Source of the DNA: a virus | IMG/VR virus record: IMGVR_UViG_3300030419_007436 | Coordinates: 32,001 to 96,000 of that record | Direction: 5' to 3' (one strand) | Length of the DNA: 64,000 bases | In this document: one piece after another, positions 32,595-62,518 of the stretch | How positions within the stretch are numbered: the first letter of the stretch is position 1 | Layout: every line of letters begins with the position of its first letter | Made by a program: the position numbers and the translations under genes | Notes under the pieces: generated by a model | The model's input: the letters and a program-made list of their open reading frames with translations, nothing else | What the model was told of the DNA's origin: nothing | Databases searched by the model: none

Positions 32595-32816
32595 TTAGTT
32601 ACTTATCTTTATATTATTAATTAATTCTAAGAGATCTTGAAGATAACTTTCAACAGTGCCTGGGTTGCTTTCCCATGTTTGCAGAAGATCTTTTACTTCC
32701 GCCATCACTCCTTCAGCTTCCCTCAAATTATGTCTAGAGAGATGTAGATCGTGTCGTTCGTCTTCTTCGAATGCTTCTTTAATTAATTGCTTAAGTTTTG
32801 ATTTTGTTAGTTTCAT
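32595..32816 (-). CDS. Class-A leader protein (MKLTKSKLKQLIKE), small acidic cargo
   Basis: Shared leader; RBS AGGAG. Confidence 0.75.
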   Translation of the reverse strand: MKLTKSKLKQLIKEAFEEDERHDLHLSRHNLREAEGVMAEVKDLLQTWESNPGTVESYLQDLLELINNIKISN

Positions 32817-33054
32817 AGTAGACTCCTATTTGTGTACGTCCTCGAAAATCTTCGGTTTGGAATACCCAGCAGCCTGCCGCAAGGAAACAATTGCAATTTC
32901 CAGCTCTTTGAGAGCGCTGGCGCTATAGTTGCGCATAGCCTTAATCTCTTGATATGCTGCTACCGCATGTTGCAACGGATCATCGCGAAGCTGTTGCTGC
33001 TCTGTTATAACTTCTTTAATTAATTGCTTAAGTTTTGATTTTGTTAGTTTCATA
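32774..33054. repeat. 44-nt exact direct repeat (32774-32817 and 33011-33054) encoding the leader
   Basis: cttctttaattaattgcttaagttttgattttgttagtttcata occurs twice. Confidence 0.95.
32826..33053 (-). CDS. Class-A leader protein, small helical cargo
   Basis: Shared leader; RBS GGAGGT. Confidence 0.75.
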   Translation of the reverse strand: MKLTKSKLKQLIKEVITEQQQLRDDPLQHAVAAYQEIKAMRNYSASALKELEIAIVSLRQAAGYSKPKIFEDVHK

Positions 33055-35893
33055 TATTATATACCTCCTCTAAAGTTTCTTCTGTTGTTTCTTCAGTTTG
33101 AGGATAGTCCGGACTTTCTGGTTCTTCTCCAATTTGATCAGACATTTCTCCTTCGAATTTATCAAAATAAAGCTTAAGGTTTGTAAGTCCCCAGTCCTTA
33201 AATATATGCGCATCTTCAGGAGCAATTAATCTTTCATATGAGGAAACAATCTGCTGTTGTACATCATTCCATGCTTTTTCAGACTCTGAAGCCCCTTGTT
33301 GGACATAAGGGTCGTCTGAATCTAACTTTATAAACTCATTTTTTTCTTCTTCTTCATCTTCTTTTGCCTGCTCAATATCTTTAGATCTGGCAGGTAAAAA
33401 TTTCGACTCATCAGGTTCACTAGTGATATCATCTTGTTCGACTCCAACTTTAAAATCTAATTCTGCTAATTGCATTTGGGCGTCTCCGGGGGCCACTCTG
33501 TTTGCATCAATAGGAGCTAGAGCATTTTTGAAATTAACTAAAAAATGATATCTAAAAGATTTTCTTTCTTTCTCGCTCGATGACAAATTAGTATAAGCAT
33601 CTTCGATTTGCGTAATAATTCTTTTTAATAAATCATCTAAAACATTAATTCCAGTGTTTTTGTGTACAACTTTATCTGCCACTGCAGTTTTTCTATCAAC
33701 TTCCGGTATGACTTGGCGAATAACTTCTCCTAATTTACTTTCTTCAGAATGAATATTCTTTCTTTTTTCTTTTATAACTTTGATACCTTTTCTAATAAGT
33801 TTTCTTAGCCTTTCTTCTTCTGCATGCATTGAACTCACTCCTAATATTCTAAATAAATAGTCTTCTACTTCTCTAATTAACCCCTGTGGTTTGGCTTTAT
33901 CTCTCTTACCTGCACCCATCTCCGCAGCACCACCACCCATAGAAGAAGTTTCCTCCAACTCTTCATCGCAATCTTCTATATCTGGGTCACATTCCTCTCC
34001 ATCATCAAAACGATGTTTACCGGTATTATAATATCCTAGAGTGGCGCCCGCCTGACCATACATTCCTGTTAAACTCTCTTCTATCATCCGCAGAAAGATA
34101 CCCAGCGGAAGCTGGTTTTCCTCCAATTGTCTTAATTTATTTTTAATTAAATCATATATAAGCGGATCATAAAAACCCATTATTTGTTGAAATGATTCAG
34201 GATCTGAGCCTTTTAGTGCCGTCCTTAGTGTTGTACCAGACATTTCTCCGTGGCCCGGCACATCAATTGAAACATGCGGCGCAACTCCAATCTGCCATTC
34301 CCAGCCCTCATCTGTAGTGCCTTCTGTTTTTTGAAATCGAGGACTTTCTTTCATATCCTTTTCGCCAACTAAATAAACAACAGAATATTCTTCAGGATTA
34401 TAGTTCTGTAATATTTCTTTTGCGTTATATGGATTTTTTACTTTAATAATATTGTCTGATGAAATATCGTGAGATTGAATAATTTGTTTCTTTTCTTGAA
34501 AATTGAATGGAGATTTTGGAGTTCCTTCTTTTGTTGACATATCAACAGTATCTGATGTGGCAATAAAAACTTCATCATATTTTGGATCATTTAATATCTC
34601 TTTAAAAACTTCTGCATGATGTCTACCCATGGGCTGAAACCTTCCGGGATATACAGCAATAGTTTTCTTTTCAGTTACTTCACCAGATTCTTCAAAATCA
34701 TCTTCTATCTCAAACTCATAATCAATTGGCTCTTCAATAACTTCTGAGATTATTTCCTCTTCCTTATCAGCTTTAATCTTATCTTTTATTGCTCCCGAGG
34801 CGCCTTTTGTAATAAAATCTCCAGTCACTTTTACAGGTCTATCATCAATACCTCTAATAACAATACCTTCATGACCCTCTAAACCGCCTTTAGAGCTTGT
34901 TGAGGCGCGTTTAACGTCCATACCCAACTCATGGGTCGCGTGATTGAAAAGCGCGCCGTTAATGGCCGTTTTAACGTCTTCTGGAGTCTCTAACCATTCC
35001 ATAAGAGGTGTACCATTTAAAACGGCAAAATAAACCTCTTTACTTATTGCCCAAGCTGTTTTACCATCACGCTTTTGTACTTTTGCATCAAATGGGTTAA
35101 CTGCTTGAGATAACCAATCTTTTAATGGATAAGTTTCACTTTCTGTGCTTGTCATTTGTATAGAAAATGGAGTCGACAATGTTTCAGAAAAATCAACATC
35201 AGATTCTAATTGAGTTGAAACATCGCCAACCAAGCTAACTTCATGCTGTTCCGCGATAGGCTTCACTTTCTCAATAATAGATTCTAAAGCGCCCCGGTCA
35301 TAAGATATTTCTGTGCTGCCATGTTTTGTTGGTTTTCCGGTTTCTGGATCCACTGGTCTTTCTAATCCTGGTCGATCTATACCAATTCCTTTTCTAATTC
35401 TATGTGGTTGAGCCTTCTTTTCATAAAATTGATTGACGCCATGAAGGGCTAATATTTTTTCATCGTATTCAATTACGTTAGTTTTACCCTTTTTCATATA
35501 TTCTGTGTTAAAATATTTAGTGGGATCATCCCACATTCCAAGAGCTTTTAATTCTGGTTCAATTTGCGGCAGCGCTTCATTAAATATTTTTAGAAGCTCA
35601 TCAATTGCGGGAGGCATACCATGACCTTCGGGCCATTTTTTATAAGCATCGGCCGCCGTCATACCTCTAACAGATTCAGGTGCAGATGTGCCACGATCCA
35701 TCCTGAAGTCTTTTCCAGTTGGGGTAGATTCATCATCGACAAGTTTAAAGCTTACATTAATACCGTCAAACTTAACACTTCCGGGATTTGTAGAGAGATG
35801 TTCTGCAATTCTTTCGAAATAGTTTATTAAGTCTTGCCCTGTTTTGACATCTGGTATGTCAAATGGATGTTGCATATGTCCTGATGTGCCCAT
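33050..35893 (-). CDS. Multidomain protein: KxDG ligase-like nucleotidyltransferase, cytidylyltransferase-like domain and helical C-terminal region with a nested start at 33829
   Basis: VKFDGIN, HEGIVIRG, PVKVTG; AVYPGRFQPMGRHH, MSGTTLR. Confidence 0.65.
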   Translation of the reverse strand: MGTSGHMQHPFDIPDVKTGQDLINYFERIAEHLSTNPGSVKFDGINVSFKLVDDESTPTGKDFRMDRGTSAPESVRGMTAADAYKKWPEGHGMPPAIDELLKIFNEALPQIEPELKALGMWDDPTKYFNTEYMKKGKTNVIEYDEKILALHGVNQFYEKKAQPHRIRKGIGIDRPGLERPVDPETGKPTKHGSTEISYDRGALESIIEKVKPIAEQHEVSLVGDVSTQLESDVDFSETLSTPFSIQMTSTESETYPLKDWLSQAVNPFDAKVQKRDGKTAWAISKEVYFAVLNGTPLMEWLETPEDVKTAINGALFNHATHELGMDVKRASTSSKGGLEGHEGIVIRGIDDRPVKVTGDFITKGASGAIKDKIKADKEEEIISEVIEEPIDYEFEIEDDFEESGEVTEKKTIAVYPGRFQPMGRHHAEVFKEILNDPKYDEVFIATSDTVDMSTKEGTPKSPFNFQEKKQIIQSHDISSDNIIKVKNPYNAKEILQNYNPEEYSVVYLVGEKDMKESPRFQKTEGTTDEGWEWQIGVAPHVSIDVPGHGEMSGTTLRTALKGSDPESFQQIMGFYDPLIYDLIKNKLRQLEENQLPLGIFLRMIEESLTGMYGQAGATLGYYNTGKHRFDDGEECDPDIEDCDEELEETSSMGGGAAEMGAGKRDKAKPQGLIREVEDYLFRILGVSSMHAEEERLRKLIRKGIKVIKEKRKNIHSEESKLGEVIRQVIPEVDRKTAVADKVVHKNTGINVLDDLLKRIITQIEDAYTNLSSSEKERKSFRYHFLVNFKNALAPIDANRVAPGDAQMQLAELDFKVGVEQDDITSEPDESKFLPARSKDIEQAKEDEEEEKNEFIKLDSDDPYVQQGASESEKAWNDVQQQIVSSYERLIAPEDAHIFKDWGLTNLKLYFDKFEGEMSDQIGEEPESPDYPQTEETTEETLEEVYNI

Positions 35894-35902
35894 AAATTAC
35901 TC

Positions 35903-37309
35903 CTAAAGTGCGCCTCTGGTGCCTAAATTTTTTAAATCTTCTTTTTCCATAGCTCCGGTATCTCCACCCAGAGTGCCTCCTTCATCATCTGCGTGACTAG
36001 GCACTTCAGGCGCATCCTCCACTTGATCATCATCAAAATCAATATCTGCTATTTCTTCTTGTCTATCTTGTCTGTCTGCTCTTTTGATTCTATTTACATG
36101 TGCTCTGTGAGCAATAAATTCAGTCTCCCGGTCGACATATTCTTGTAATTGCTTTAATTTATTTATTAAACCCGGACAACAATCAGCACTAATTAATTCT
36201 TCTTGTTCTGGTCTCCAAACTTTTTCTAATTTACAACTCCCGGGAATAATTTTACCTTTTTTATCAAATTTACAAGTTTTTGGATCATAATAAAGCTTTT
36301 GTGACTCTCCTGGTATTGGCTTCCCTTCTTTATCTAATTCAACTCCCCAGTCTTTTGGCATATCTTCGGCACACATTGCCTTTATTTCTGCTATTTTTTG
36401 TTCTATGTTTCCTTGAATATTCATTAGTCTTTGATGATCTTCTTTGTTTCTAGTTAATTTACTAAAATCTTGTACGATCTTATTCCATATAGACATTGTT
36501 TCTTCTTTGTTCATTTTAAGATGGCCGCCGTATTTCTCATCTTCACCAAAAACTATTCCAACAGAACCACCAGGAACTATTCTTGCGATTATTTTTTCAA
36601 TATAGTGAAAACCGTCTAAATATTTTAAAGCCATATCATATGGTCTAATATTAGTGCCCGGTACCGTCCACGTACAATCCCAGCTTTCGAGTTGATCCAA
36701 AATTTGACCTTCAATAAATCCGTGAAACATTAGATATGCTACTACTTTTGCAGCTTTTGGATATTTCCAGGCCCATCCATATCTTGCTAACCACCTTAAT
36801 AACATATTAGGTCCTGCCCGCCACCACCACTTGGCTCCATGCGCTAGATAGGGCGCCCCCGCTCTTAGTGCGGCGCCTGTGGCGCCCACTCCCCCTCCAA
36901 GCCCCAAGAGCGCAATTGCAGCCGCGGCTTTACCGGTTTGTAGTGTATCTTCTGTTTCATCTTCATATCTATCTTTAGTGGTAAATCCACCTTTTGTATG
37001 AAAGCCCATTTGTTCGCCGGTACCAATATCTCCCCATGACCATTCTGTTTTTTCGAACGGCTGCTTGATATGTGCCGGTACTTTAGTTTTACCACCACCT
37101 CTTTGAAGAACGCCCCCACCAGCCGTACGACCAGATGGGTCTTGTGTCAAATCATATATTTTATCTGCGGCGCGCCTTCCCAAACGGCCGGGAAGATTCA
37201 TGGTCTGTTTTAGAGCATTTTTTATATCTTTCCAGTCTAACTCTTCTAATAATTCGGGATTTTCTAATAAAATTAGTTTTATCTCTTTTTTTAAATCTTT
37301 TTTATTCAT
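35903..37309 (-). CDS. Divergent class-A leader protein with a hydrophobic Gly/Ala segment; candidate ejection protein
   Basis: MNKKDLKKEIKLILLE; AAAAIALLGLGGGVGATGAALRAG. Confidence 0.6.
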   Translation of the reverse strand: MNKKDLKKEIKLILLENPELLEELDWKDIKNALKQTMNLPGRLGRRAADKIYDLTQDPSGRTAGGGVLQRGGGKTKVPAHIKQPFEKTEWSWGDIGTGEQMGFHTKGGFTTKDRYEDETEDTLQTGKAAAAIALLGLGGGVGATGAALRAGAPYLAHGAKWWWRAGPNMLLRWLARYGWAWKYPKAAKVVAYLMFHGFIEGQILDQLESWDCTWTVPGTNIRPYDMALKYLDGFHYIEKIIARIVPGGSVGIVFGEDEKYGGHLKMNKEETMSIWNKIVQDFSKLTRNKEDHQRLMNIQGNIEQKIAEIKAMCAEDMPKDWGVELDKEGKPIPGESQKLYYDPKTCKFDKKGKIIPGSCKLEKVWRPEQEELISADCCPGLINKLKQLQEYVDRETEFIAHRAHVNRIKRADRQDRQEEIADIDFDDDQVEDAPEVPSHADDEGGTLGGDTGAMEKEDLKNLGTRGAL

Positions 37310-39899: not shown

Positions 39900-41030
39900 C
39901 TAAATAGTTTTCTTTTTTCCTACAGTAACCTTAAAACTTTTAAAACTTTTGTTTAAAGACTGATAAAAATATTTAGACCAGCTTTCAAACAAAAGTGGAT
40001 CCTTTTTGTTCTCATACATTGTTGGAATATGATGCTGTCTTGAAACATCTTTGCCGGTTATATTTCCTATGTATTTTTTTCTAAAAGCTGCTGAAGGATT
40101 TTTCTCGACACCCTTTGTGCTTTTTGAATAATCATTTGGCACAACATGCTCAGAACCATCTGGCATTTTTACCTTAAGATCATCTTTTATATTAATTTTT
40201 TTAGCTACTAATTCAACCCAGGAATCCCACAATTTTCGGGAGATATCATCAGCGCCCGTTTCCTTTGCGATTTGTCTTAAAAATTCTACATATTTTTGTG
40301 CTAGTTCGACTCCACCAGAAGTAAGTTTTATTATATTACTATCAAACTCACCAGCTTGAATAACTTTTTTACCAGATGCCGTAACTGATGGAGTTTTAAA
40401 TCCTTTATCTCCCGGGGTTAATATATTAAATTCTTGCGAAATACCTTTATAAATATTTAAATTAATTGAATCAATACAGCCTAAACGACCAATAATTAGT
40501 TGGGTGGCAAAAGCAGCTTTAGGTAAACCAAATCCTGGTAGTGTTATTGTTTGTAGATAAATATTAAATAAGGCCTCTTCTTTTCTTAAACCATTAGAAT
40601 TATTATACTCATCAAATAGAGGGCTGAAGCTGGAATATATGCTTTCTCTATTTTTCCACAAAAAATCAATTGCATGTTTCCTTGGTCCCATAACCAATTG
40701 TCCAAAGCCAGAAAAATCATATCTTGGTTTGTCTTCACCAGGATTCAATAAGTTTCTATCAGTCATTAATCCATCATTTTCATGAACAAAATTTAGTAAT
40801 ATTGGAAACTTTGGTACCACATCATACCATCTCATTTGTTGTGTGCCGATTACAAACATCAATACATCAGCTAATTGATCTGGAGAGTATTGTGCGTATT
40901 CATTTATAAGGGGATTGTATTTGCAAAAGCCAGAATCAAACTCTTTTGATAAATCTAATACAGCATCCTCAGAAGCTTCTTCTTCAGCTTCTTTAATATA
41001 CTCTCGCCAATTTTCAAATAGTAATTTCAT
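39900..41030 (-). CDS. Class-B leader protein, HhH-GPD glycosylase/endonuclease III-like
   Basis: MKLLFENWREYIKE (TAATG overlap at 41030); LPGFGLPKAAF...GCIDSINL. Confidence 0.6.
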   Translation of the reverse strand: MKLLFENWREYIKEAEEEASEDAVLDLSKEFDSGFCKYNPLINEYAQYSPDQLADVLMFVIGTQQMRWYDVVPKFPILLNFVHENDGLMTDRNLLNPGEDKPRYDFSGFGQLVMGPRKHAIDFLWKNRESIYSSFSPLFDEYNNSNGLRKEEALFNIYLQTITLPGFGLPKAAFATQLIIGRLGCIDSINLNIYKGISQEFNILTPGDKGFKTPSVTASGKKVIQAGEFDSNIIKLTSGGVELAQKYVEFLRQIAKETGADDISRKLWDSWVELVAKKINIKDDLKVKMPDGSEHVVPNDYSKSTKGVEKNPSAAFRKKYIGNITGKDVSRQHHIPTMYENKKDPLLFESWSKYFYQSLNKSFKSFKVTVGKKKTI

Positions 41031-42388: not shown

Positions 42389-42421
42389 TTGTGTCCCTTA
42401 GTGAGAAATTTTCGCCAATTT

Positions 42422-42952
42422 TCAAACGTTTTTTTCATACATTAATTCCCCTGATTCTTCTGCCTTTTGATTTCTTTCTTTTTCGTAAGCATTCCGCAAT
42501 TTTCCAAAAATACCGTAAGGATCGGAAGGGATTGCTTCGAGACCAGCTTCTTCGGCGTCTAAAATATCTTCTGGATCATCGTCATGGTGCATCGACGAGT
42601 TTAAATTTTTAAGAGTTTCAATTTTAGCGTTGCCATTGGTAAAATATACCCCATCTACATTTAATCCATGTTCATCGAGAAACTCTTGCACAGCGCGCTG
42701 CTCTTCATTTTCTAAGGATTGGGCCTCTCTGTCTTCATATCTGGAAGTCACAACATATACTACAACATCTGGTTCCCTAATAAATTCTTTAATTCTTTTC
42801 ATCATTGGCTCATAAGGGCCCGCGTGTTTCCATGTACCGGTTTCATCATTAAAATCTGATTTCGCCAAGGTATCATCAAAATCAAACGTAACAACTTTTT
42901 TTTCTTCTTGTTCGTTTAAATACTTTCGCCAATTTTCAAATAGGAGTTTCAT
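42422..42952 (-). CDS. Class-B leader protein, HAD phosphatase
   Basis: MKLLFENWRKYLNE; FDFDDTL, VVTSR, HHDDD. Confidence 0.8.
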   Translation of the reverse strand: MKLLFENWRKYLNEQEEKKVVTFDFDDTLAKSDFNDETGTWKHAGPYEPMMKRIKEFIREPDVVVYVVTSRYEDREAQSLENEEQRAVQEFLDEHGLNVDGVYFTNGNAKIETLKNLNSSMHHDDDPEDILDAEEAGLEAIPSDPYGIFGKLRNAYEKERNQKAEESGELMYEKNV

Positions 42953-44997: not shown

Positions 44998-45453
44998 TTA
45001 TTGTCCTCTTTTCCACTTTAAAAAATTAATTAATCTCTGACAAGTATCGATCTTATCTTTTATTTTTTTTTCTAAACCAAACTGTGTGACTATTTGATAG
45101 TCTTGAAAATTATCTAATTTTGCCCTTTCTAATCTTATCTCAGCTTCAGATAATCTAGTGAGAGCTTGCATAAACTCTAAGCTAGCCGACAAATATAATT
45201 TTTTTTCAATTAATTTTTTTCCTTCTTTGATAAAATTATCAGAATCATGATAAAGGGCGACAGCACACTCTGCTTCTGATTTATCTTTGCAATCTAATTG
45301 TGGATTACAATCATCTTGAAAAATTATTTTTACAGGACCATCTTCATATTGTGAAGTAACAAGTACTTTGGCGTTCGGATCTTTGACATATTGTGGCCCA
45401 CAGCTTACAATTAAAAACAATAAAACAGAAATATATAAAAAAATGTTTCTCAT
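44998..45453 (-). CDS. Putative lipoprotein
   Basis: Lipobox LIVSC. Confidence 0.7.
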   Translation of the reverse strand: MRNIFLYISVLLFLIVSCGPQYVKDPNAKVLVTSQYEDGPVKIIFQDDCNPQLDCKDKSEAECAVALYHDSDNFIKEGKKLIEKKLYLSASLEFMQALTRLSEAEIRLERAKLDNFQDYQIVTQFGLEKKIKDKIDTCQRLINFLKWKRGQ

Positions 45454-45457
45454 ACTA

Positions 45458-46191: not shown

Positions 46192-46203
46192 TTTTTACCT
46201 CTT

Positions 46204-48748: not shown

Positions 48749-49735
48749 TTAATCTTGCCCAATTGGCGGGTACCCTCTGGGGAGCCCAAGTTTTCTTCTT
48801 GTACTCTTGCCCGCATTGGTGATAATCCAGTTTTTATGATATCTTATTACCCCGTCACCCACCAATTTCTTAAACTTTTCTAATTTATCCTCACCGAGTG
48901 ACCGAACCAAGTCGACTGAGGGATCCGGATCTTGCGCAATTGTCTGCATATATACTATGTCTGGGTCTCTCGTTTTTTTGGCCAATTTATTAACTTTGTC
49001 TAAATGTACCTGAGTATAATGCGCGCCAGAGCGCCACTCTGTCCTTCTCTTTGGCTTAACTTGCTTAACTTTTACTTTTATTTTTCGTTTTTTCCACTTT
49101 CTATATTTTGAATAATGATCTTTTAAACTCGGATATAAAATTTCACATGCTCTATCAGTTTTTTCACTGGGCGCGCCCCCATCGCCTTTTCGTGGTTTAT
49201 AATGTTCACTATCTGGGCATCTTCTAGCATTTCTTCTTTTGAAAAAGTCTTCTTTTTTACCATCCCACTCCCATTTTCGTTTTTTATTAAGCCATCTTGT
49301 CGACATTCCTAAGAAACGCTTCGGCATTGGCGATCCAAGGGCCCAAATTTCTTCAGTTACATCTCCTGGCTTGACATCGCCCATGAGATTCCACCCTCTA
49401 TCTTTATATGAAACGCATTCTCGCTCCCAGAATCCTTCAGGAGTTTGTTTTGTTTGACCTTGTTTACACGTACCTTCTTTAAAATCAAAATGTAATACGC
49501 CTGGCGATGTCCACGGATGACAGTCTGTGTCTTCTTCTGGGTTATATGTACCCGGCAAAGGTTGATATCCATCTCTACATTTAAAAGGTTCTTCTTCTGT
49601 GGTTGTCTCATCACTCCCGGCCGCTTGATGTGCGATTTGTAGTGCTCTCGGGAACCCGAAGGCGCCCCATTCTTCTAAAGTACCTCTTAATTCTTCTCTA
49701 ATTATCTCTTTTATTCTTTTTTTAGTGACATGCAT
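48749..49735 (-). CDS. Class-A leader protein with Cys-containing and basic cargo
   Basis: MHVTKKRIKEIIREEL; RBS AAGGAG. Confidence 0.7.
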   Translation of the reverse strand: MHVTKKRIKEIIREELRGTLEEWGAFGFPRALQIAHQAAGSDETTTEEEPFKCRDGYQPLPGTYNPEEDTDCHPWTSPGVLHFDFKEGTCKQGQTKQTPEGFWERECVSYKDRGWNLMGDVKPGDVTEEIWALGSPMPKRFLGMSTRWLNKKRKWEWDGKKEDFFKRRNARRCPDSEHYKPRKGDGGAPSEKTDRACEILYPSLKDHYSKYRKWKKRKIKVKVKQVKPKRRTEWRSGAHYTQVHLDKVNKLAKKTRDPDIVYMQTIAQDPDPSVDLVRSLGEDKLEKFKKLVGDGVIRYHKNWIITNAGKSTRRKLGLPRGYPPIGQD

Positions 49736-52415: not shown

Positions 52416-52484
52416 TCATTCGCGAAGAGCGCTAATTTCTTCTAAAATTAACTCTTTTAAATAATCTTTTGTAAGTTTTTTCAT
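52416..52484 (-). CDS. Leader-only micro-ORF MKKLTKDYLKELILEEISALRE*
   Basis: Manual translation; RBS GGAG; class-A-like leader. Confidence 0.5.
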   Translation of the reverse strand: MKKLTKDYLKELILEEISALRE

Positions 52485-52495: not shown

Positions 52496-53284
52496 TTAAA
52501 TGTTGATTTTTACAATCTCACTTCCTATTCCATTAACTGACATCATTTTATCATATGACATAATTTTTAAACTAGATAGTTTATGTAAATAGTCGTTACG
52601 GCGCAGAACTTTATAAACTAAATTCTCAACAGAATATTCTCCGCCCTTTTCTAAACCACCTTGTCTAAATTTCCTTAATTTTTCTCGAAGCTTGTTGGCT
52701 TCGTCGTGTGCAAATTTATATTTTTTTTCTGCAAAATCATCGTATATATCATCAATGTGATTCATAAACTTTGCAGCTTTTTTCTTTACGTTGGCTTCAT
52801 CAATTTGTGGATTATATCTAGAAGGTGTTTTATTCCACCTATCATATTTTATTGAATAAACACCTGTAGAATGGTGTTGCTCTCTAGAATCCTGTACATA
52901 TAATTCTACATCATGGCCTTTAATTCTAATATTGTGGGTTTTGTTCCACATTGAAGAAACACTTCTAAAAAGATCTGTTACCAGCTTTTCATTTTCATCA
53001 ACTTGAGAATAATCTACCAGTATATGCAAATCCACGTCTGAATATCGAGACCAATTATAGTTTGCTAAAGAACCTGTTAGGGTAACATCTTTTACGAGAG
53101 ACCATTCTAGGCCTAAATTTTGAAAGAAGTTTTTTGCAATTTTATAAAGATGTTTAGAAATATATTCTTTTAATTTATTTTTTTCCCATATAACGGGATC
53201 TAAATTATCCTTAATTGTAAAACCAGACATTTTAACATCTTCAGGGTCTATAATCTCTTCTAAATATTCTTTAAAAGCTTTCAT
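52496..53284 (-). CDS. Pol-beta-superfamily nucleotidyltransferase with T4 CTS-like leader
   Basis: MKAFKEYLEE; TGSLANY..S.YSDVDLH (GS...DxD), VELYVQD. Confidence 0.85.
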   Translation of the reverse strand: MKAFKEYLEEIIDPEDVKMSGFTIKDNLDPVIWEKNKLKEYISKHLYKIAKNFFQNLGLEWSLVKDVTLTGSLANYNWSRYSDVDLHILVDYSQVDENEKLVTDLFRSVSSMWNKTHNIRIKGHDVELYVQDSREQHHSTGVYSIKYDRWNKTPSRYNPQIDEANVKKKAAKFMNHIDDIYDDFAEKKYKFAHDEANKLREKLRKFRQGGLEKGGEYSVENLVYKVLRRNDYLHKLSSLKIMSYDKMMSVNGIGSEIVKINI

Positions 53285-53288: not shown

Positions 53289-53744
53289 TTAGTTCCAATC
53301 TTCTTGGTCGTCGTCCCAAAGGCCCGCACTCTCTTCTGGTGTCATCGGAGTCGACGGACCTTCTCTGCGCGCCAAGGCCTCTTCTTTGTCATAACGTCGT
53401 CTAAGGCTCTCTTCGTAATCATCTTCTGGTTTTGAGAGTGCAGGGTCATGACCAAGCATTGAACTAGCTTGTTCAGCTATTGGCAAAAGAGCATCCATCA
53501 GCAATTCTTCAAATTCTAAAGCAAGATCATTTTCGTGCATTTGCCCAGGCCCATCGCCAATTTTACCTTCGGCTTCAAACTCGCTAAGTAATACATCTTG
53601 TAGGGCGCTAACAAGCTTATCATTTATTTGATACACAGGACCAGCAGCCCATTTCGATTCAGGGTGTACATCGTCTGGCCAATCAGCAGCCTCTCTAAGT
53701 TCTTCTTTAATTATTTGTTTAAGCCTTTCGATTTTAATACGCAT
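53289..53744 (-). CDS. Class-A leader protein, acidic cargo
   Basis: MRIKIERLKQIIKEEL. Confidence 0.7.
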   Translation of the reverse strand: MRIKIERLKQIIKEELREAADWPDDVHPESKWAAGPVYQINDKLVSALQDVLLSEFEAEGKIGDGPGQMHENDLALEFEELLMDALLPIAEQASSMLGHDPALSKPEDDYEESLRRRYDKEEALARREGPSTPMTPEESAGLWDDDQEDWN

Positions 53745-54014: not shown

Positions 54015-54635
54015 TTATCCCAGTTCCTTAATTATTTTTTCAACATCCCCATCATCATACACAATATATACATCTTCATCCAATCCAAGTACTTTTTCTT
54101 GCATGTCGCTGGCTTCTTGTCTGGCCCTAGAAAGTCTTTCTTCATATTCTTCTTGAGATTTATACTCTCCTTTATTTAGGCGCTTTAAATGTCGTCTTTC
54201 TAGCTCCTCTGTAGATGGAGGCGCCGAAAAAACAAGTATTAATTCTTTTCCGTATTTTGCTGCAACATTCCTTAAGTCATTCTCATCCTTACTTCCATCA
54301 ATACTTGTTTCGTCTGTAACTAATATTGCTTTTTGAGCATTTAAAAAATCTTCTAATTTTGTTCCATAATAATTACCACCGTATTGATTAGTATTAATTA
54401 ATTGTCCACTTTTGTCTTTTTCTAACCAGTCCTCTTCTGTTGTAAAATCATATTCAACATCTTCTTCGCCCCTCGGCGGGCGAGTAACTAATGAAACTAA
54501 TTCCTTCCATCCGTGTTTTTTAAATATATTTTTTTGTCTAGACTTTCCAGATCCAGATGGTCCAAATATGGCAACAACCTTACCAGATTTAGATTCTTTC
54601 AGATATTGGCGCCAGTTTTCAAATAAGAGTTTCAA
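54015..54635 (-). CDS. gmk: Class-B leader protein, guanylate-kinase-like
   Basis: GPSGSGKS, VTRPPRG.E..EYDF, YGGNYYGT. Confidence 0.8.
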   Translation of the reverse strand: MKLLFENWRQYLKESKSGKVVAIFGPSGSGKSRQKNIFKKHGWKELVSLVTRPPRGEEDVEYDFTTEEDWLEKDKSGQLINTNQYGGNYYGTKLEDFLNAQKAILVTDETSIDGSKDENDLRNVAAKYGKELILVFSAPPSTEELERRHLKRLNKGEYKSQEEYEERLSRARQEASDMQEKVLGLDEDVYIVYDDGDVEKIIKELG

Positions 54636-54844
54636 TCTTTTTTAAATCTCCTAAATGTGTAAGTATTCCATTGATCTAGTTGATTAGTCGTGTTAGATAA
54701 ATTCCATCGTTCTGGTATATTACAAACTGGTATTAGTGCATGCAAAAGAAATACAAGGCCTCTAAAAATTAAAGTTAATCCAATTTTACCAGCAAATAGT
54801 AGATGACTTAAGTAAGTCTCGTTATTTTCTTTTAGATGCATCAT
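54632..54844 (-). CDS. Small membrane protein (DUF6356-like)
   Basis: HLKENNETYLSHLLFA...LLHALIP. Confidence 0.55.
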   Translation of the reverse strand: MMHLKENNETYLSHLLFAGKIGLTLIFRGLVFLLHALIPVCNIPERWNLSNTTNQLDQWNTYTFRRFKKD

Positions 54845-55749
54845 TATAACAATTCCTTTGTAATAGAAAGTGATTCTTCACTACTCGCAATTTCATCTGA
54901 AGTTAATTGTACATCCACACCAAGCTGTTTGAGTTTTTCATATTTTTCAGAGTTTTGCCAGTGAGCTTTAATTTCTTCCATGGTTTCAGAATCGTATTCA
55001 TCAACTAGTTGAACCAAGACAACGCCATTATTATCGATATTCATATTTTTTATTGGCATCTCAACGTAGTCTTCAATCATATTAATAATTTCCGGATCTA
55101 ACTCCGGAGTATCTACTTCTACTTTAACTAACTCCTTTCTTTCAGGGTCTAATCTATATCCTGTAATCTCAGGATCAACCTCTCCAACTTGATCAAAATC
55201 AAATCCTGGCAATATTGCTATTTTCTGAGGGGGAAAATACCCTCTATCTAAAAAGAAAGCAGCTTGGCCCACAACCTCTGTAAACAAGGCGCCTGCAGCT
55301 GAAGGAGGAACAGTCTTCATGTGAGCATTATAAGAGGCAATTTCTCCTTCAAAAGTAAAATCGGTATCTCTCTGACAGTGTGTCATATAATCGTGTACTG
55401 CTCGTAGCTTTAAATTTAGTTCTGGGCTAAATATTTGATGTTCTGTGCCACCTTTCCATATCTTTAGTATACCATTATTAAGGGCATCAGCACACATTTC
55501 TTTTGGCCCCTCATATGGATCTTCATCAACAAACTGTATATCCACTCTAGAAGATATTCTTTTGAACATTTTATCTACAAATGGCTCTATTGCTTCGAAT
55601 GCGCCAACAGCCTCTTGATCAAATATGGGAGCTTCATCATAAGCTTTCGCTACTAATTCTCTATATTTATCCCATCCATCAGGTCCAGGCTTGAGCATTA
55701 ACTTTTCTGTTAGTAGGAATTTTCGCCAATTTTCAAATAATAGTTTCAT
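54844..55749 (-). CDS. Class-B leader protein with an HDxxxH putative metal-binding domain
   Basis: LRAVHDYMTH...FEGE...AH...FTEVVGQ. Confidence 0.65.
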   Translation of the reverse strand: MKLLFENWRKFLLTEKLMLKPGPDGWDKYRELVAKAYDEAPIFDQEAVGAFEAIEPFVDKMFKRISSRVDIQFVDEDPYEGPKEMCADALNNGILKIWKGGTEHQIFSPELNLKLRAVHDYMTHCQRDTDFTFEGEIASYNAHMKTVPPSAAGALFTEVVGQAAFFLDRGYFPPQKIAILPGFDFDQVGEVDPEITGYRLDPERKELVKVEVDTPELDPEIINMIEDYVEMPIKNMNIDNNGVVLVQLVDEYDSETMEEIKAHWQNSEKYEKLKQLGVDVQLTSDEIASSEESLSITKELL

Positions 55750-56777
55750 TATTGAGCCCTTCTGACAAATATTTTTTCAGCTGCAATATTACCAATCGCT
55801 AACACCTCTTCCTCATCTCTAAAAGTTTTTAAAACATTGACTTTGTTTTTATCTAGCGTTTTGGCAACATCAATAAATTTATCTCCAGAGGTTTGAAAAA
55901 TAATTTCAAATCTATCGCCATGCGTTGCCGTTGTTTGATCAGCAAACCTTTCAGCTTGTTTCCAACTCTTTGTAAATGATTTTCCCCCTTCTTGTGCGGC
56001 TATCGTGATTCCTGATCCTGGAAGTTTAATTTCAACCCATTTACCCGGCTGGCTCCAGACTTCTTGAAATTGTTTTCTGAAAAAATAATCTGCAGAATTA
56101 GCAGGATTTGGTCCTTTGCCCGCGCGGTACGCAATATAATCAAGCGGTTTACGATTTTTAATTCCGGGAATATTTAATTGGTCTACTAGCTGCATGAAAT
56201 TATTTGCTCTAGCTCCTCGAAAAGCTTTTCCAGAATATCCGACTGCCTTTCCCTCTTTTGCCATTTTTAAAAGTCTATTCATATCTCCCCTTTTAAGAAC
56301 ACCAAAGCCTTGAGTAGTTTCCATATATATTTTGAGTTTTTCTATGGACACTTTACCCGCGTCGTCAATTTTGTTGGCCATTTTTGCGCCATCTGAGACT
56401 CCATCAAACATCTTTTTACCTTTATCGGTAACTGTTTTTGTGGTTCTCATTAATTTGGCAGCCTTTGCTGGCGCAGCGGCTTTTCCAAGTACAGGAATAA
56501 TTGCAAGAAGTGCTAAAAGCCATTCTCCTCCAGCCTTCATTGTTCTCTGATCGTTTAAATTTTTCGTTGCTGCAGCAAATTCTGGCCACGATAAAATACC
56601 TGTCGGTTCTACAATAGAAACAATTTGTCTTATTGTATCTGCCTGTTCAACGGTCATTTTACTAGAAAGGCTTACTAAGGCATCAAGAGTACGCTCTTCA
56701 GAAGGTCCGCCCATTCCTGTTATTTCGTTTAAAGATTCTTTTCTAAAATTTCGCCAATTTTCAAATAGTAGTTTCAT
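55749..56777 (-). CDS. Class-B leader protein, predicted R-S-E ADP-ribosyltransferase
   Basis: AFRG, KSFTKS..QAERFA, DEEEVL; pre-toxin-like LLAIIPVLGKAA. Confidence 0.65.
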   Translation of the reverse strand: MKLLFENWRNFRKESLNEITGMGGPSEERTLDALVSLSSKMTVEQADTIRQIVSIVEPTGILSWPEFAAATKNLNDQRTMKAGGEWLLALLAIIPVLGKAAAPAKAAKLMRTTKTVTDKGKKMFDGVSDGAKMANKIDDAGKVSIEKLKIYMETTQGFGVLKRGDMNRLLKMAKEGKAVGYSGKAFRGARANNFMQLVDQLNIPGIKNRKPLDYIAYRAGKGPNPANSADYFFRKQFQEVWSQPGKWVEIKLPGSGITIAAQEGGKSFTKSWKQAERFADQTTATHGDRFEIIFQTSGDKFIDVAKTLDKNKVNVLKTFRDEEEVLAIGNIAAEKIFVRRAQ

Positions 56778-56988: not shown

Positions 56989-57420
56989 TTAAAACCACTC
57001 TACATCTTTAAAAATATCTTTTAGTTGGTTAAAGAAATCAGAAATAACTTTTTTGTCTTCTTCTGATATTGCTCCGTTATCTGCAATTATTACTTTATCG
57101 TTTCCATTGCCGTCAACATATTTTACAATGCCTACTGGTTTTAAATTTTGAGATTTAGAGTCTGAACTGGGAGATATTACAAAGTCCCAGCCCATATTAT
57201 CGGCTGGATTAATTGCATCCGTCCACTCACCATAATCAAATGGCAGTTCTAGTTGTGTACCACCTTTAAAGGCCTTCGTAGAGCCTTTAGGACTATCTAT
57301 ATTACGATTTTGATTTGCTTCTGGATTTTGATTTAGATATCCAATTAGATTTTCATATGAATCTAGAGATTTTTCTTCTTCGGTGAGATATTGACGCCAA
57401 CTTTCAAATAATGTCTTCAC
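56989..57420 (-). CDS. Class-B leader protein, inorganic-pyrophosphatase-like
   Basis: MKTLFESWRQYLTE; PKGS, PFDYGE....PAD.MGWDFVI, GNDKVII. Confidence 0.6.
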   Translation of the reverse strand: MKTLFESWRQYLTEEEKSLDSYENLIGYLNQNPEANQNRNIDSPKGSTKAFKGGTQLELPFDYGEWTDAINPADNMGWDFVISPSSDSKSQNLKPVGIVKYVDGNGNDKVIIADNGAISEEDKKVISDFFNQLKDIFKDVEWF

Positions 57421-57435
57421 ATTATAAGTAGTAGC

Positions 57436-58761: not shown

Positions 58762-59016
58762 CTATTCAGGGCATTTTACTTGCGACCCAAGTGTACTTGG
58801 ATCAACGGGAGCCTTCAGTCTCACAGGGCTGCATGATCCTTGACCACAATACACCTTTAAGCGTGGATTAATAAGTTTAAACACCCCTTTTTCGTCTTGA
58901 TAGCATGGATATTCTCCTTCTTTCAGGAGTGTTTCTAACAGTTCTTGCTGTTCCAATATATGATCAGTTAAAGATTCTTTGATTAGTTGTTTAAGATTGG
59001 ATTTGGTTAGTTTCAT
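58762..59016 (-). CDS. Class-A leader, four-Cys peptide (paralog of 62258-62518)
   Basis: MKLTKSNLKQLIKES; PCY.DE.GVF.LIN...KVYC....C..VRLK. Confidence 0.75.
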   Translation of the reverse strand: MKLTKSNLKQLIKESLTDHILEQQELLETLLKEGEYPCYQDEKGVFKLINPRLKVYCGQGSCSPVRLKAPVDPSTLGSQVKCPE

Positions 59017-59021: not shown

Positions 59022-59336
59022 TTATCCTTCCCACACACTTTCACATGCACTAGGATCTCCTGAGAATTTCTGTAGTCCCAGCGTACGGACCGTATCTTCT
59101 TTGCCCCATTTTTCTAGATAGGCCCGGGCCTGTCTAGCATTATCTTCCGGAGTGTTTCTTCCACCAGCTGCAGCATAAAATTTACGTGCATTGGCAATTG
59201 ACCACCCTAGTTTACACAGCGGCACCTTCTGCGCATTAACATAAGCTAGCACGTTATCAGGATAGGGCTCTTCCATAAGAACGCTTCTTAGTTCTTCTTG
59301 GATAATTTGTCTAAGTTTTGATTTGGTTAATTTCAT
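59022..59336 (-). CDS. Class-A leader small protein
   Basis: MKLTKSKLRQIIQEELRSVLMEE. Confidence 0.75.
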   Translation of the reverse strand: MKLTKSKLRQIIQEELRSVLMEEPYPDNVLAYVNAQKVPLCKLGWSIANARKFYAAAGGRNTPEDNARQARAYLEKWGKEDTVRTLGLQKFSGDPSACESVWEG

Positions 59337-59636
59337 TTTTAGTTTTTTCCTTGTTGTTGGCTATAATAGAGGCCGTAAACCTATAGCTGATAGCTGCTCC
59401 TCATCCATCCCCGGGCGCATGGCACAACTGCGCACATCGCTAGCGGTTTTGGTGGCGTCTTGGCCAACACATTGAGAATTCCACAATCGCGAACATTTAC
59501 TCATACTATAAGCAGGTTCGCCCTGGGCCAATTCTTTACTTACCCTTACACACCAAGCGCTAGCTTCTTCTTCCATAAGAACGCTTCTTAGTTCTTCTTT
59601 AATAATTTGTTTAAGTCTGGATTTTGTTAATTTCAT
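59271..59636. repeat. 66-nt near-identical leader repeat (59271-59336 and 59571-59636)
   Basis: 60/66 identical by manual alignment. Confidence 0.9.
59361..59636 (-). CDS. Class-A leader, four-Cys small protein
   Basis: MKLTKSRLKQIIKEELRSVLMEE; RBS AAGGAG. Confidence 0.75.
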   Translation of the reverse strand: MKLTKSRLKQIIKEELRSVLMEEEASAWCVRVSKELAQGEPAYSMSKCSRLWNSQCVGQDATKTASDVRSCAMRPGMDEEQLSAIGLRPLL

Positions 59637-59753
59637 AGAGGAATCTCCTTACTAATATTAAATAGTATAAAAATACACTAAATGCATATATTTCCTTGAC
59701 ATTATTCCGAGAGTCTGTTAATCTGTATATAAGAATAAAGGAGTTCATTCACT

Positions 59754-60185
59754 ATGAATACAAATACAATCAAAAAGTGTCTCTTGGTTTTTCTCGCATT
59801 GGGGTTGATTTCTTGCGCGAAGAAAGAAGAGACAAAAAAATACCCAGAAGTTAAATGGGTAAAATTTGAAAATTATGTTAATAATAGTTATAAACAGCCA
59901 GTTTTTGTTAATGTAACTGCCGACTGGTGTGCAAACTGTCAATACATCGAAAAGACTGTGTTAGAAACTGCAGAATTTAAAAAATATGTTGAAGAGAAGA
60001 ACGTGTTAGCAGTAGAAGCAGATGTAACGCAAGAAGAAAATTTTAATAAAGTAGAAAATTGGTTTAATGAAGTTACCAAAGAGAACTTTACTGGTGCTCA
60101 AACATATGTTGTTTTTGATAGAGGGAAGACAACAGTATTACAATCACAAAATGATGTGTTGGCTTTTTTGTGGATGTCTAAATAA
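59754..60185 (+). CDS. Thioredoxin-like lipoprotein (DsbD C-terminal-like)
   Basis: GLISC lipobox; VNVTADWCANC; VEADVT. Confidence 0.85.
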   Translation: MNTNTIKKCLLVFLALGLISCAKKEETKKYPEVKWVKFENYVNNSYKQPVFVNVTADWCANCQYIEKTVLETAEFKKYVEEKNVLAVEADVTQEENFNKVENWFNEVTKENFTGAQTYVVFDRGKTTVLQSQNDVLAFLWMSK

Positions 60186-60187: not shown

Positions 60188-61201
60188 TTATTGGGGATCA
60201 TATTTTTTAACAAATTCTTCCCATGCTTTATATTTGTCAGAGCCCCCGTATTTCTGCGGCCCTAATCTTTCTATACGCCTTCTGAGTATTTTGGCCCGCT
60301 TCTTACGTCTTTCCGGTGGCAATGACGCCAAACGCTTGTACTCTCTTTGAGAAGCGATATTGCCTCCAAGATTAGGTACCTTGATTCCCCCAATTGGGTT
60401 CCCTGAATCAGGCGCCTGGCTTTTCTTTGGATTTTGCCCTGGAATACGTTTTTTCTTAAGGTTTTTTATAGCCTGCAACGCTTTTGATGCAGTTTGTTTA
60501 TCTGCTTCACCACTAGCGTTTTTTGATTGTGTGCGCAACGATGCAAGAATTTCTTGTCTCTTTTTAGGATCTCTTTCTGCATAATATCGATCAACCAGTC
60601 TTTGAATTTCCTTCGGGTTGACAGTTGCAGGTCCTTTTACTGTCGGCTTTGTTTTTGGATCAGCTTTTTTGGGCCCCGTTGGCGTACTGGATTTTGCTGG
60701 TGCCGCAGGCTTTTTAGCTGCGACTCCCTTCGGCGGAGGACCACCTCTATATTTACACCTAAACCATGTACGGTACGTTGCTCTTTCTGGGTGCTTTGCT
60801 GGCAGCTTTTTCCAGCCTCTGCGCAACGGAGGCCTAGGCCCACACTTACCAGACGTACGTCGACGACTTTTGCTTTTCTTGCTTTTTCTTTTAGTGCTAG
60901 TTGGTTTACCTTTCGTTTGCAGTTTTTTTAATGCAGCCATCCTTTCTTTATCGGTTTTGGTTTCTTTTTGTTTACCTCTATGATCTGCCCATGCTTTTCT
61001 AGAAGGTACCTGTCTTGGGGCTGTACCATCGGCAGGCGTGATCACGCAAAACCACTGCCCTGCTCTGGCGCCTTTCAGTGCTTTGGTACCGGGTGGGCAT
61101 GCATTTGCTGCTGTTACCTTTGATGCTTTTTCTTGTTCAAACAATATATTAGAGATTTCTTCTTGTATGATTTGTTTTAAGTAGAATTTGGTTAGTTGCA
61201 C
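60188..61201 (-). CDS. Class-A leader, Lys/Arg/Pro-rich protein
   Basis: MQLTKFYLKQIIQEEI; RBS GGAGG. Confidence 0.75.
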   Translation of the reverse strand: MQLTKFYLKQIIQEEISNILFEQEKASKVTAANACPPGTKALKGARAGQWFCVITPADGTAPRQVPSRKAWADHRGKQKETKTDKERMAALKKLQTKGKPTSTKRKSKKSKSRRRTSGKCGPRPPLRRGWKKLPAKHPERATYRTWFRCKYRGGPPPKGVAAKKPAAPAKSSTPTGPKKADPKTKPTVKGPATVNPKEIQRLVDRYYAERDPKKRQEILASLRTQSKNASGEADKQTASKALQAIKNLKKKRIPGQNPKKSQAPDSGNPIGGIKVPNLGGNIASQREYKRLASLPPERRKKRAKILRRRIERLGPQKYGGSDKYKAWEEFVKKYDPQ

Positions 61202-61255
61202 AGGACGGCCTCCAATATATATAAATAGTACCTCGGCCCTTAAATCGAAAATTTT

Positions 61256-61557: not shown

Positions 61558-62076
61558 TTAATGCATGCGTTGGAATTGTTCTAATAACACATCTTTAATA
61601 ATGCGGCGTAGATTTTCTTCGAATGTACCGCTAAAGGTGGCACCGACGCCCTTACCTTTAACTATATCTCCGGCGGTACCCACGCCTGCCGCGCCTAATT
61701 TAACATTTCCTAACTTACTATGCATACCGGTAATCTTTGCTTTTGCAATATCTCCACCGGAGCGCTTCTTAGCTACTTTTGGCGTACGCATAATGATATT
61801 TTTGTTTTTTTCGTACCATTCTTTGTATTTAAAAAAATTGTCGCGCTGCTTTTTATGATTGCCCATCATAGACTCCGCCTTACAAAGGTGAGCTACGCCC
61901 GCTGCTTTGGCATATTTACAAAAATGTTTTACACTTTGGGTAGCTGCAAAACCATCACTAGCGGTTGCTAGGGCAATTGATTTAAATTCTTTATTTTCTG
62001 TATCTGCAGCTGGCGCCACAGCTTCATGTATTTCTTCTTGTATGAGTTGTTTGAGTGTTGATTTAGTAAGCTTCAT
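61558..62076 (-). CDS. Class-A leader protein with Gly/Lys-rich cargo and a C-terminal LRRIIKDVLLE echo
   Basis: MKLTKSTLKQLIQEEI. Confidence 0.75.
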   Translation of the reverse strand: MKLTKSTLKQLIQEEIHEAVAPAADTENKEFKSIALATASDGFAATQSVKHFCKYAKAAGVAHLCKAESMMGNHKKQRDNFFKYKEWYEKNKNIIMRTPKVAKKRSGGDIAKAKITGMHSKLGNVKLGAAGVGTAGDIVKGKGVGATFSGTFEENLRRIIKDVLLEQFQRMH

Positions 62077-62167: not shown

Positions 62168-62194
62168 GATAGTGTTCTCCTCTGTGTATAATAA

Positions 62195-62227
62195 CTAGTT
62201 CGATGCGCTAGATTTGGTTAGTTTCAT
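62195..62227 (-). pseudogene. Truncated leader relic MKLTKSSASN*
   Basis: First six codons match the class-A leader DNA. Confidence 0.5.
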
Positions 62228-62257
62228 TAGCTAATATACCCTTTTATTTAAGACACT

Positions 62258-62518
62258 TTATCTACTACACCCATCGCCAACCCACTCCCATTGATTTTTT
62301 AAAGAATCGCTGGGCTCACCCTTCAGTCTCACAACTCTGCATGGTTTTTGTTCACAATATACCTTTGAATATTGGTTATCCATATTAATAAGTTCAAATA
62401 CCCCTTCTTCGTCTCTATAACATGGATTTACAGCACCTTCCAGGAGTTGCTGTTCCAGCATTATATTTTGTAATTCTTCTTGTATGATTTGTTTAAGTTT
62501 GGATTTGGTTAGTTTCAT
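62258..62518 (-). CDS. Class-A leader, four-Cys peptide
   Basis: MKLTKSKLKQIIQEEL; paralog of 58762-59016. Confidence 0.75.
   Translation of the reverse strand: MKLTKSKLKQIIQEELQNIMLEQQLLEGAVNPCYRDEEGVFELINMDNQYSKVYCEQKPCRVVRLKGEPSDSLKNQWEWVGDGCSR

Follow-up and report, generated by a model that had tools for sequence, protein, structure and literature searches.

Two short leader peptides on unrelated proteins of an uncultured marine T4-type phage as probable capsid-targeting sequences

Introduction

Why do about 21 mostly unrelated proteins of one phage begin with one of two short leader peptides? The question is raised by a 64,000-nucleotide (nt) stretch of viral DNA (hereafter the window), which comprises bases 32001–96000 of the 190,629-bp IMG/VR record IMGVR_UViG_3300030419_007436. 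The record, rated 100% complete, belongs to an uncultured, marine, T4-type phage of ~190 kb. Its leaders fall into two classes, with the consensus sequences MKLTKSxLKQIIKEEL (class A) and MKLLFENWRxYLxE (class B). An earlier reading of the window from its letters (the sequence-only reading) had taken both for signals that route their proteins into the prohead, and this interpretation is partly supported, since all computational tests that we ran fit it. The best explanation, and in our judgment a fairly probable one, is that both leaders are capsid-targeting sequences (CTSs) of the T4 type, in two classes, from which the attached proteins (the cargoes) would be released by a protease.

The T4 system provides the terms of this comparison. 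The first ten residues of the internal protein IPIII (MKTYQEFIAE) suffice for loading into the T4 prohead, residues 4 and 7 serving targeting and residues 8 and 10 serving processing, and the prohead protease gp21 cleaves after L/I-x-E (PMC9026906). By capsid protein, the nearest cultured relatives of the present phage are Flavobacterium phage vB_FspM_immuto (immuto; 49%), Microcystis phage Mel-JY01 and Rhodothermus phage RM378, the last being the cultured member of a lineage named Far-T4 (PMC4360716).

Two classes of leader in one genome

Profiles of both leader classes were run over the six frames of the whole genome, and the starts listed in the sequence-only reading were also translated. 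Genes are named below by their start position in the window unless the genome is indicated. The scan confirmed that all leaders of the window lie on the minus strand and that its first 32.5 kb hold none, as had been claimed.

Ten intact class A genes were found in the window. The first two encode proteins of 73 and 75 amino acids (aa) (32595–32816, MKLTKSKLKQLIKEAF..., profile E 5e-11; 32826–33053, MKLTKSKLKQLIKEVI..., E 6.5e-10). The third, with the divergent leader MHVTKKRIKEIIREEL, encodes a 328-aa protein whose basic cargo has a net charge of +19 (48749–49735, E 1.4e-9), and the fourth, starting MRIKIERLKQIIKEEL, a 151-aa protein with an acidic cargo of charge −22 (53289–53744, E 1.6e-10). 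The remaining six, recognised by translation and profile match, encode an 84-aa Cys-rich protein (58762–59016), proteins of 104 aa (59022–59336) and 91 aa (59361–59636), a very basic 337-aa protein with a GTG start and a net charge of +63 (60188–61201), a 172-aa protein (61558–62076) and an 86-aa protein (62258–62518). Two class A relics consist of the leader only, one of 22 codons followed by a stop (52416–52484, MKKLTKDYLKELILEEISALRE, E 3.6e-5) and one of 10 codons followed by a stop (62195–62227, MKLTKSSASN). Beyond the window, two further class A genes start at genome positions 137636 and 184669. Translation from the listed starts reproduced the motifs of both classes. One start of that list, 37309 of a 468-aa protein (35903–37309, MNKKDLKKEIKLILLEN), proposed as a divergent class A member, was missed by both leader profiles and by a profile of the head-core protein N-terminus described below; its membership is not supported, and we do not count it.

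Class B is represented by seven clear genes, which encode proteins of 376 aa (39900–41030, MKLLFENWREYIKE, E 8.5e-9), 176 aa (42422–42952), 116 aa (48390–48740, MKLILENFRNYLKE), 206 aa (54015–54635, TTG start), 301 aa (54844–55749), 342 aa (55749–56777) and 143 aa (56989–57420, GTG start). An eighth start of the earlier list, that of a 572-aa protein (50141–51859), carries the degenerate leader MSFFKSWRQFLNE and gave only a weak profile match; full class B leaders are present on its orthologues in related phages. To these can be added a 262-aa nucleotidyltransferase of the pol-beta type (52496–53284; Pfam NTP_transf_2), whose start MKAFKEYLEE equals a class B leader minus four residues. We had also considered a third class of canonical T4 form, M-K-x-[FY]-x-E-[FY]-[LI]-x-E, which has one instance in the genome and none in 1 Mb of relatives. 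This class was dropped, and its single instance was reread as the shortened class B leader.

Throughout the genome, profile matches below E ~1e-3 are leader starts, save two matches of the class B profile. One is a class B-like copy, LFENWRGFLKED, at the C-terminus of a 611-aa lysozyme and GDSL/SGNH protein without an N-terminal leader (42956–44791, minus strand; Pfam Phage_lysozyme and a weak Lipase_GDSL_2 match). This copy is coded at ~42959–42994, directly before the next class B leader, and reaches E 3e-6 when the profile is run among the tails of open reading frames (ORFs). The other is a weak match at genome 74403–74438 (window 42403–42438; E 3.6e-4). The leader set in this genome is not due to chance. 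Comparison of the cargoes upheld the claim that the sequences behind the leaders are unrelated apart from two paralogous pairs, which are 59016/62518 and 61201/genome 137636.

Both leaders are charged, amphipathic peptides, with mean hydrophobicities of −0.22 and −0.18 and helical moments of 0.34–0.55. Their composition, charged and with negative mean hydrophobicity, rules out Sec, lipoprotein or Tat signals, and the true lipoprotein signals of the same region look quite unlike them.

Conservation at the level of the peptide

At conserved residues, pairs of class A genes use synonymous codons 153 times and identical codons 272 times, and pairs of class B genes 57 and 126 times, respectively. 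Thr4 is encoded by ACA, ACC or ACT, Ile12 by ATT, ATC or ATA, and Arg9 of class B by CGA, CGT or CGC, and the DNA ahead of the start codons is unrelated between genes. This free use of synonymous codons, together with the unrelated upstream DNA, indicates that selection acts on the peptide. Identity of the DNA itself is limited to local, apparently recent duplications. The first 22 codons (66 nt) of the neighbouring genes 59336 and 59636, which have an extended 22-aa leader in common and unrelated cargoes, show few base differences, and a 17-nt leader stretch recurs at the 3′ terminus of the lysozyme gene, immediately ahead of the leader of 42952.

Such duplications would suit a different explanation, in which the shared starts are DNA-level joints of recombination or duplication that promote exchange, as in the ip loci of T-even phages or in PeSL cassettes, and the peptide itself has no function. 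The leader-only relics, the fusions and fissions at leaders and the swaps of leaders between homologous cargoes point in the same direction. The many synonymous codons (Thr4, Ile12, Leu and Arg9) and the unrelated flanks stand against it, as does the presence of W8, E6, R9 and I12 at 93–100% in hundreds of distinct proteins; moreover, recombination at the leaders is likely a consequence of their shared sequence and not an alternative function. We consider it very improbable that the leaders are nothing but joints, though their shared DNA probably helps the exchange of cassettes.

The pattern of conserved residues also bears on where a leader ends. The class B logo spans residues 1–14, with E6 in 100%, W8 in 98%, R9 in 93%, [LIVM]12 in 92% and E14 in 82% of the proteins, and its information content falls to about zero from residue 15, directly after [LIVM]12-x-E14. 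The class A logo spans residues 1–16, with I12 in 100%, K13 in 77%, E14 in 98% and E15 in 94%, and a second [LIVM]-x-E ends at residue 21–22 in 52% of the class A proteins. The leaders agree with their description as amphipathic peptides ending in [IL]-x-E; the conservation of class B stops at this motif, and the conserved block of class A continues to E15 and L16. Among the relatives, the leader starts at the start codon in 341 of 349 class B matches and in 74 of 78 class A matches.

The leaders are rich in Lys and their codons rich in A, with AAA as the second codon, and A-rich codons after the start could favour translation initiation. This composition would be compatible with a translation-boosting start or, alternatively, with a regulatory propeptide that inhibits a toxic enzyme until it is cut, in either case with no capsid targeting. 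Some cargoes do look toxic (ADP-ribosyltransferase-like or kinase-like), and a protease motif follows the leader. The invariant Trp, Phe and Tyr residues, like the synonymous variation, speak against an element that acts as RNA, and the C-terminal copies cannot serve translation initiation; as to inhibition, one 14-residue peptide is an unlikely inhibitor of ~185 unrelated folds. We regard a purely regulatory or translational role as quite improbable.

Likeness to the T4 capsid-targeting sequence

The shortened leader of the nucleotidyltransferase, MKAFKEYLEE, has aromatic residues at positions 4 and 7, L8 and E10, and thereby agrees with MKTYQEFIAE at the four positions used by T4. An orthologue of this enzyme in a related phage (L028; 46% identical) starts with MKLFFENWRQYLEE and aligns from residue 4. 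As the orthologue has a full class B leader, the T4-like ten-residue form can be described as class B minus four residues, and class B is thereby linked in form to the T4 CTS. A full class B leader fits the T4 CTS only with a four-residue insertion (NWRx), class A shows no sequence likeness to it, and the peptides are too short for homology to be established.

In other respects the two systems can be compared more broadly. As in T4, a short N-terminal peptide starting with MK is common to otherwise unrelated proteins and ends in aliphatic-x-Glu, the motif of gp21; the phage encodes an S77 protease of the gp21 family together with a T4-type head module; and the cargo sets vary between related phages, as do those of the internal proteins. 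Unlike T4, which has one leader class, three internal proteins and a few other tagged proteins, the present phage has two classes and ~21 tagged genes per genome. Its leaders are longer (14 and 16–22 residues), large enzymes are frequent among its cargoes, the leaders occur in rare cases at the C-terminus or internally, and their function is a predicted one.

A second parallel is offered by jumbo phages of the phiKZ type (phiKZ, 201phi2-1 and SPN3US), in which the N-terminal propeptides of many head-internal proteins are removed after Glu by a T4-related protease. The propeptides of phiKZ have redundant cut sites (PMC9026906), as class A may have in its two sites. In contrast to the present leaders, these propeptides are long and family-specific, their cut motif is S/A/G-x-E, and the phages belong to another lineage.

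The protease and the head module

The gene of the prohead protease (Peptidase_S77, gp21-family) lies at genome 165220–165852, with a PF03420 match at 165322–165735 (E 6e-25), and that of the Gp23 major capsid protein at genome 158.6–160.4 kb; homologues of the portal, large terminase, tail sheath, UvsX and SbcCD were also identified. At the position of the T4 gp23 maturation cut, the capsid protein reads AKELLRE followed by ASTM. An [LIV]-x-E before A or Y occupies this position in the present genome, in five relatives of its clade, in immuto and in Mel-JY01. The conservation of this site suggests that the protease has the same specificity as that of T4.

The head module, from portal to capsid, was compared among eleven genomes of the clade. 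In one of them (G055), a pair of class A genes, for proteins of 77 and 85 aa, is located directly upstream of the protease gene and a class B-like gene (MKVIMENWDRFILQEE) two genes further up, and in another a gene starting MKLTEENLKKFILEQ... is directly upstream of the protease. The corresponding region of T4, upstream of the protease gene, encodes gp67 and gp68, two small proteins of the core. All eleven genomes encode, immediately downstream of the protease, a small protein (120–187 aa) that starts MKKxELKKxLKPLVKECIKEVLxEE. The class A profile, run against 109 head-module N-termini, matched 9 of the 11 orthologues of this small head protein at E<0.1. In an hhalign comparison, leader residues 5–23 align with residues 7–25 of the head protein (E 2e-4, probability 46%), and both aliphatic-x-Glu positions coincide. 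This alignment points to class A as a copy of the end through which a head-core protein docks. Besides the protease and the portal, the head-module proteins include a 147-aa core protein, a 424-aa scaffold candidate and proteins of 271 and 199 aa.

The leaders might also dock to a partner other than the prohead, such as a host complex (ribosome, RNA polymerase or membrane), a phage factory or a chaperone, with or without cleavage. They behave as portable short linear motifs, found rarely at C-termini and inside fusions as well, many cargoes are cytoplasmic-type enzymes, and a Cpn60 chaperonin and a bS21 ribosomal protein are encoded by the phage. Docking of this kind would leave unexplained why class B conservation stops exactly at [LIVM]-x-E, why the shortened class B leader matches the functional positions of the T4 CTS, and why leader genes lie beside the protease and class A resembles a head protein. 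The presence of S77 in all near-complete carriers also counts against it, and we consider this alternative unlikely.

Cargoes and their exchange

Related contigs totalling 2.0 Mb yielded 303 different complete class A proteins, with a median length of 109 aa, and 256 different class B proteins, with a median of 210 aa. Class A is mostly carried by small proteins and class B by larger ones, often enzymatic and similar to kinases, phosphatases, nucleotidyltransferases or ADP-ribosyltransferases. Clustering of 378 leader proteins of the relatives gave 185 cargo clusters, 129 of which are singletons.

The cargoes identified in the window comprise, besides the pol-beta nucleotidyltransferase, the basic proteins (+63 and +19) and the small Cys-rich proteins, a guanylate-kinase-like P-loop kinase and an HAD-type phosphatase. 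The kinase is the 206-aa protein of 54635 (Pfam Guanylate_kin, 5e-14; PHROG guanylate kinase), whose domain occupies residues 19–205 and starts just after the leader. The 176-aa protein of 42952 has a cargo resembling HAD-type phosphatases or nucleotidases, with a weak Pfam 5′-nucleotidase match and a match to the PHROG polynucleotide kinase family. Relatives add protein kinases and basic proteins of the DUF6321 type, and PHROG and Pfam scans of most small class A cargoes gave no match.

The 342-aa class B protein (56777) was modelled with AlphaFold2 at medium quality (predicted local distance difference test, pLDDT, 68). Its C-terminal half probably has the fold of R-S-E ADP-ribosyltransferases: the top Foldseek matches of the model are bacterial ADP-ribosyltransferases, at weak E values of 0.03–0.3, and FRG, SFT and EEEV motifs are conserved. 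The protein may, tentatively, be analogous to T4 Alt, the head-packaged, gp21-processed and injected ADP-ribosyltransferase, with which it has motifs of the R / S-x-T / E-x-E kind in common, and it is plausible from the model that this cargo is a functional analogue of a packaged host-modifying enzyme. The two differ in that there is no sequence homology between them, the fold assignment of the present cargo being weak, and in that Alt has its own propeptides and not a CTS of the internal-protein type.

The leader behaves as a unit separate from the protein behind it. Homologues of the cargoes in unrelated phages (mycobacteriophages, Lak phages and phages of Synechococcus and Maribacter) align solely downstream of the leader; for the 301-aa protein of 55749, the mycobacteriophage homologues align from residue 33 only. 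In two checked pairs of homologous cargoes, each 60% identical, one phage has a class A leader and the other a class B leader. The 572-aa protein (51859), for which Pfam gave only a sub-threshold match (YrbL-PhoP_reg), is matched in BLASTP by two separate class B-led proteins of relatives over residues 1–324 and 317–570, respectively, and the relic NWRLFLEN is retained at the junction. Similarly, an ORF of ~730 aa in a relative (L010; IMGVR_UViG_3300030419_006251) has the class B-like peptide EQKIFNNWRKFLTEAQQAPHQI inside, with ~490 residues before and ~240 after it, which looks like a leader retained as the joint of a fusion protein.

Copies of the leaders at the C-terminus are rare. The two clearest of the class A-like ones, found in relatives (L027 and L096), follow directly on ...P-I-D-E, which agrees with a tag that can be removed from the C-terminus, and T4 Alt undergoes C-terminal processing as well. 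In the present genome, the 376-aa class B protein of 41030 has a second, class B-like motif (LLFESWSKYF) near its C-terminus, which is kept in its orthologues.

The polymorphic ip loci of T-even phages, as they are cited in PMC9026906, encode related proteins of basic character whose starts are CTS-like. They offer a comparable picture of cargo turnover behind a conserved leader whose DNA probably aids recombination. Unlike these loci, the present system comprises hundreds of cargo families in an uncultured marine clade, with two leader classes that are swapped between homologous cargoes.

A leader common to many proteins might also be what a modifying enzyme recognises, as happens with ribosomally synthesized and post-translationally modified peptides (RiPPs). 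No radical-SAM domain (PF04055) was found in the genome, every non-leader gene family is found beside the leader arrays in at most 21 of 118 related loci, and the leaders show no Cys, Ser or Thr pattern of the kind that marks RiPP cores. The likelihood of such a role appears to us extremely small.

Distribution among phages and cells

Scanning of the full genome with the leader profiles, part of a check proposed in the sequence-only reading, upheld the members discussed above. In IMG/VR, a degenerate DNA pattern of class B was found in at least 118 stretches and a class A pattern in at least 120. When a 26-nt degenerate class B pattern was searched in 596 Gb of bacterial and archaeal genomes, one match was obtained, with ~0.5 expected by chance; cellular matches being at chance level, the class B leader is restricted to viruses. 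Near-complete carriers are all T4-type genomes of ~180–205 kb with a gp21-family (S77) protease, and the smaller class B-carrying contigs, rated 11–55% complete, are fragments of genomes of similar size. The S77 protease is present in all 10 class B-carrying records of at least 81% completeness and in 15 of 25 class A-carrying records, including both that are 100% complete. Complete relatives have 2–11 class B and 1–11 class A leaders, and one 186-kb genome has 11 of each. The present genome is thus at the high end of the leader count without being unique, and both leaders are widespread in related marine phages.

Class A reaches further. Leaders of class A type occur in immuto (MKKSQLRQIIKEAL and MKKSELVKLIKEEL, at record positions 113138 and 102244, respectively), and about ten genes with class A-like leaders (MKLTQTKLQKLIKEEL, MRLTERRLKKIVKEEI and others) lie around 152–220 kb and 440 kb in LR756508.1, a 484-kb uncultured phage in GenBank with a 52% identical capsid protein. 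The reach of the class A leader therefore includes a phage of far greater size. Profile scans for class B gave no match in immuto, Mel-JY01, RM378 or the 484-kb phage. Searches of GenBank phages gave no match by blastn with 4.3 kb from the region and nothing useful by tblastn with the 20–22-aa leader peptides, which are too short as queries. In the literature we found no published description of either leader class.

A candidate late promoter

A short motif, ACTATTTA, shows a strong strand bias in the whole genome, with 24 copies along the coding strand as opposed to 3 along the opposite one. The motif is usually located 10–50 nt before a start codon, preceding the genes of the tail sheath and several virion proteins, phoH, and the class A genes 59636, 61201 and genome 137636; for the last of these, a separate copy lies within the 38-nt gap behind uvsX. 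Copies in the window are found, for example, at 59659–59666 (ahead of 59636), 61222–61229 (ahead of 61201), 39901–39908 and 28319–28326. Close variants precede the leader genes 62518 and 57420 (ACTACTTA at 62536–62543 and 57425–57432, respectively) and genome 184669. Judging from the genes that it precedes, ACTATTTA is a candidate late promoter, distinct from TATAAATA of T4. Sigma70-like sites (TTGACA-N17-TATAAT) were too few to define early regions.

Proposed mechanism and points against it

From these observations we infer the following sequence of events. The leader, a short charged amphipathic peptide of 14 residues in class B and of 16, often 22, in class A, would dock its own protein onto the scaffolding core during prohead assembly. 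The S77 protease would then cut behind the Glu of the leader's terminal [LIVM]-x-E, with I-K-E14 and often a second L-x-E22 as options in class A. The cut would free the cargo within the head, and the cargo would leave with the DNA at infection. As a self-contained module, such a leader would allow cargo genes to be gained, lost, fused and re-tagged freely, giving each phage of the clade its own set.

Several findings weigh against packaging of this kind. The conservation of class A extends two residues beyond E14 (E15 and L16) and so has no neat cut-site end. The likeness of class A to the small head protein is modest at a probability of 46%, with the orthologue of the genome itself at E 0.6, and class B compared with the N-terminus of the protease (MSKKLLREYYEL) gave no significant match (E 0.4–9) and was not used as evidence. 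Among the relatives, ACTATTTA is not enriched before leaders, being found before 9% of class B genes, 19% of class A genes and 10% of other genes, and we place no reliance on it. The T4 late promoter TATAAATA shows no coding-strand enrichment and is not used, and the rules of T4 may thus transfer incompletely. Several cargoes are enzymes of the nucleotide-metabolism type that could equally act in the cytoplasm during infection. Finally, a search of the literature found no virion proteome for the clade.

A more elaborate form of the capsid-targeting explanation is possible, though we hold it to be doubtful as a whole. The two leaders would constitute a two-channel loading code that is in use throughout an abundant clade of T4-type phages, marine and uncultured. 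Class A would copy the N-terminal segment by which the conserved head-core protein of the phage itself docks, and would load small proteins similar to internal proteins, and class B, as an extended T4-type CTS, would load enzymes. Each class would bind a different site of the prohead core, so that copy numbers would be set separately, and the leaders would function at both ends of a protein and, inside fusions, as joints that can be cleaved. If this were so, any gene could become an injected effector by gaining a leader of ~14 codons, and dozens of enzymes, among them kinases, ADP-ribosyltransferases and nucleotidyltransferases, would be delivered with the DNA.

Should the leaders be capsid-targeting sequences, T4 capsid targeting would be no peculiarity of coliphages but a general modular delivery system, greatly expanded in phages of the ocean. 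Virions would be loaded in advance with hundreds of unrelated proteins, enzymes in many cases, which would be injected and act ahead of the expression of any phage gene. The accessory genes of marine phages that have no known role would then be read differently, as many of them would encode anti-defence proteins or effectors of a first strike. A simple sequence rule would spot the proteins that virions deliver when metagenomes are searched, and engineering would gain two new packaging tags of natural origin. The class A-like leaders of the cultured phage immuto make the idea directly testable.

Other genes of the region

The leader genes of the window are interrupted on the minus strand by a run of predicted lipoproteins and signal-peptide proteins (44998–48330), themselves without leaders. 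One protein within this run, of 708 aa, has five MopE-type putative metal-binding repeats (Pfam PF11617). A thioredoxin-like lipoprotein (59754–60185; Pfam Thioredoxin_7, E 1e-9) is encoded by one of the few plus-strand genes, and its neighbours are the genes of small Cys-rich class A proteins. Between 33050 and 35893, on the minus strand, a 947-aa protein with a cytidylyltransferase-like domain is encoded. It starts MGTSGHMQHPFD, and its GHMxHPF start is kept in relatives; the protein is a fusion, of which residues 1–686 and 689–947 are separate genes in related phages.

Two further genes lie outside the window. A GroEL-type chaperonin of 524 aa (Pfam Cpn60_TCP1, E 9e-71) is encoded on the minus strand at genome 111443–113017 (L122:15443–17017), and genes of this type are present in at least nine related loci as well. 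A 73-aa homologue of ribosomal protein bS21 (Pfam PF01165, E 1.5e-10) is encoded on the minus strand at genome 164528–164746 (L125:8528–8746). This gene belongs to the head module, in which the order is protease, small core protein and then, directly, bS21, and 10 of the 11 related genomes compared have a look-alike small basic ORF at the same position.

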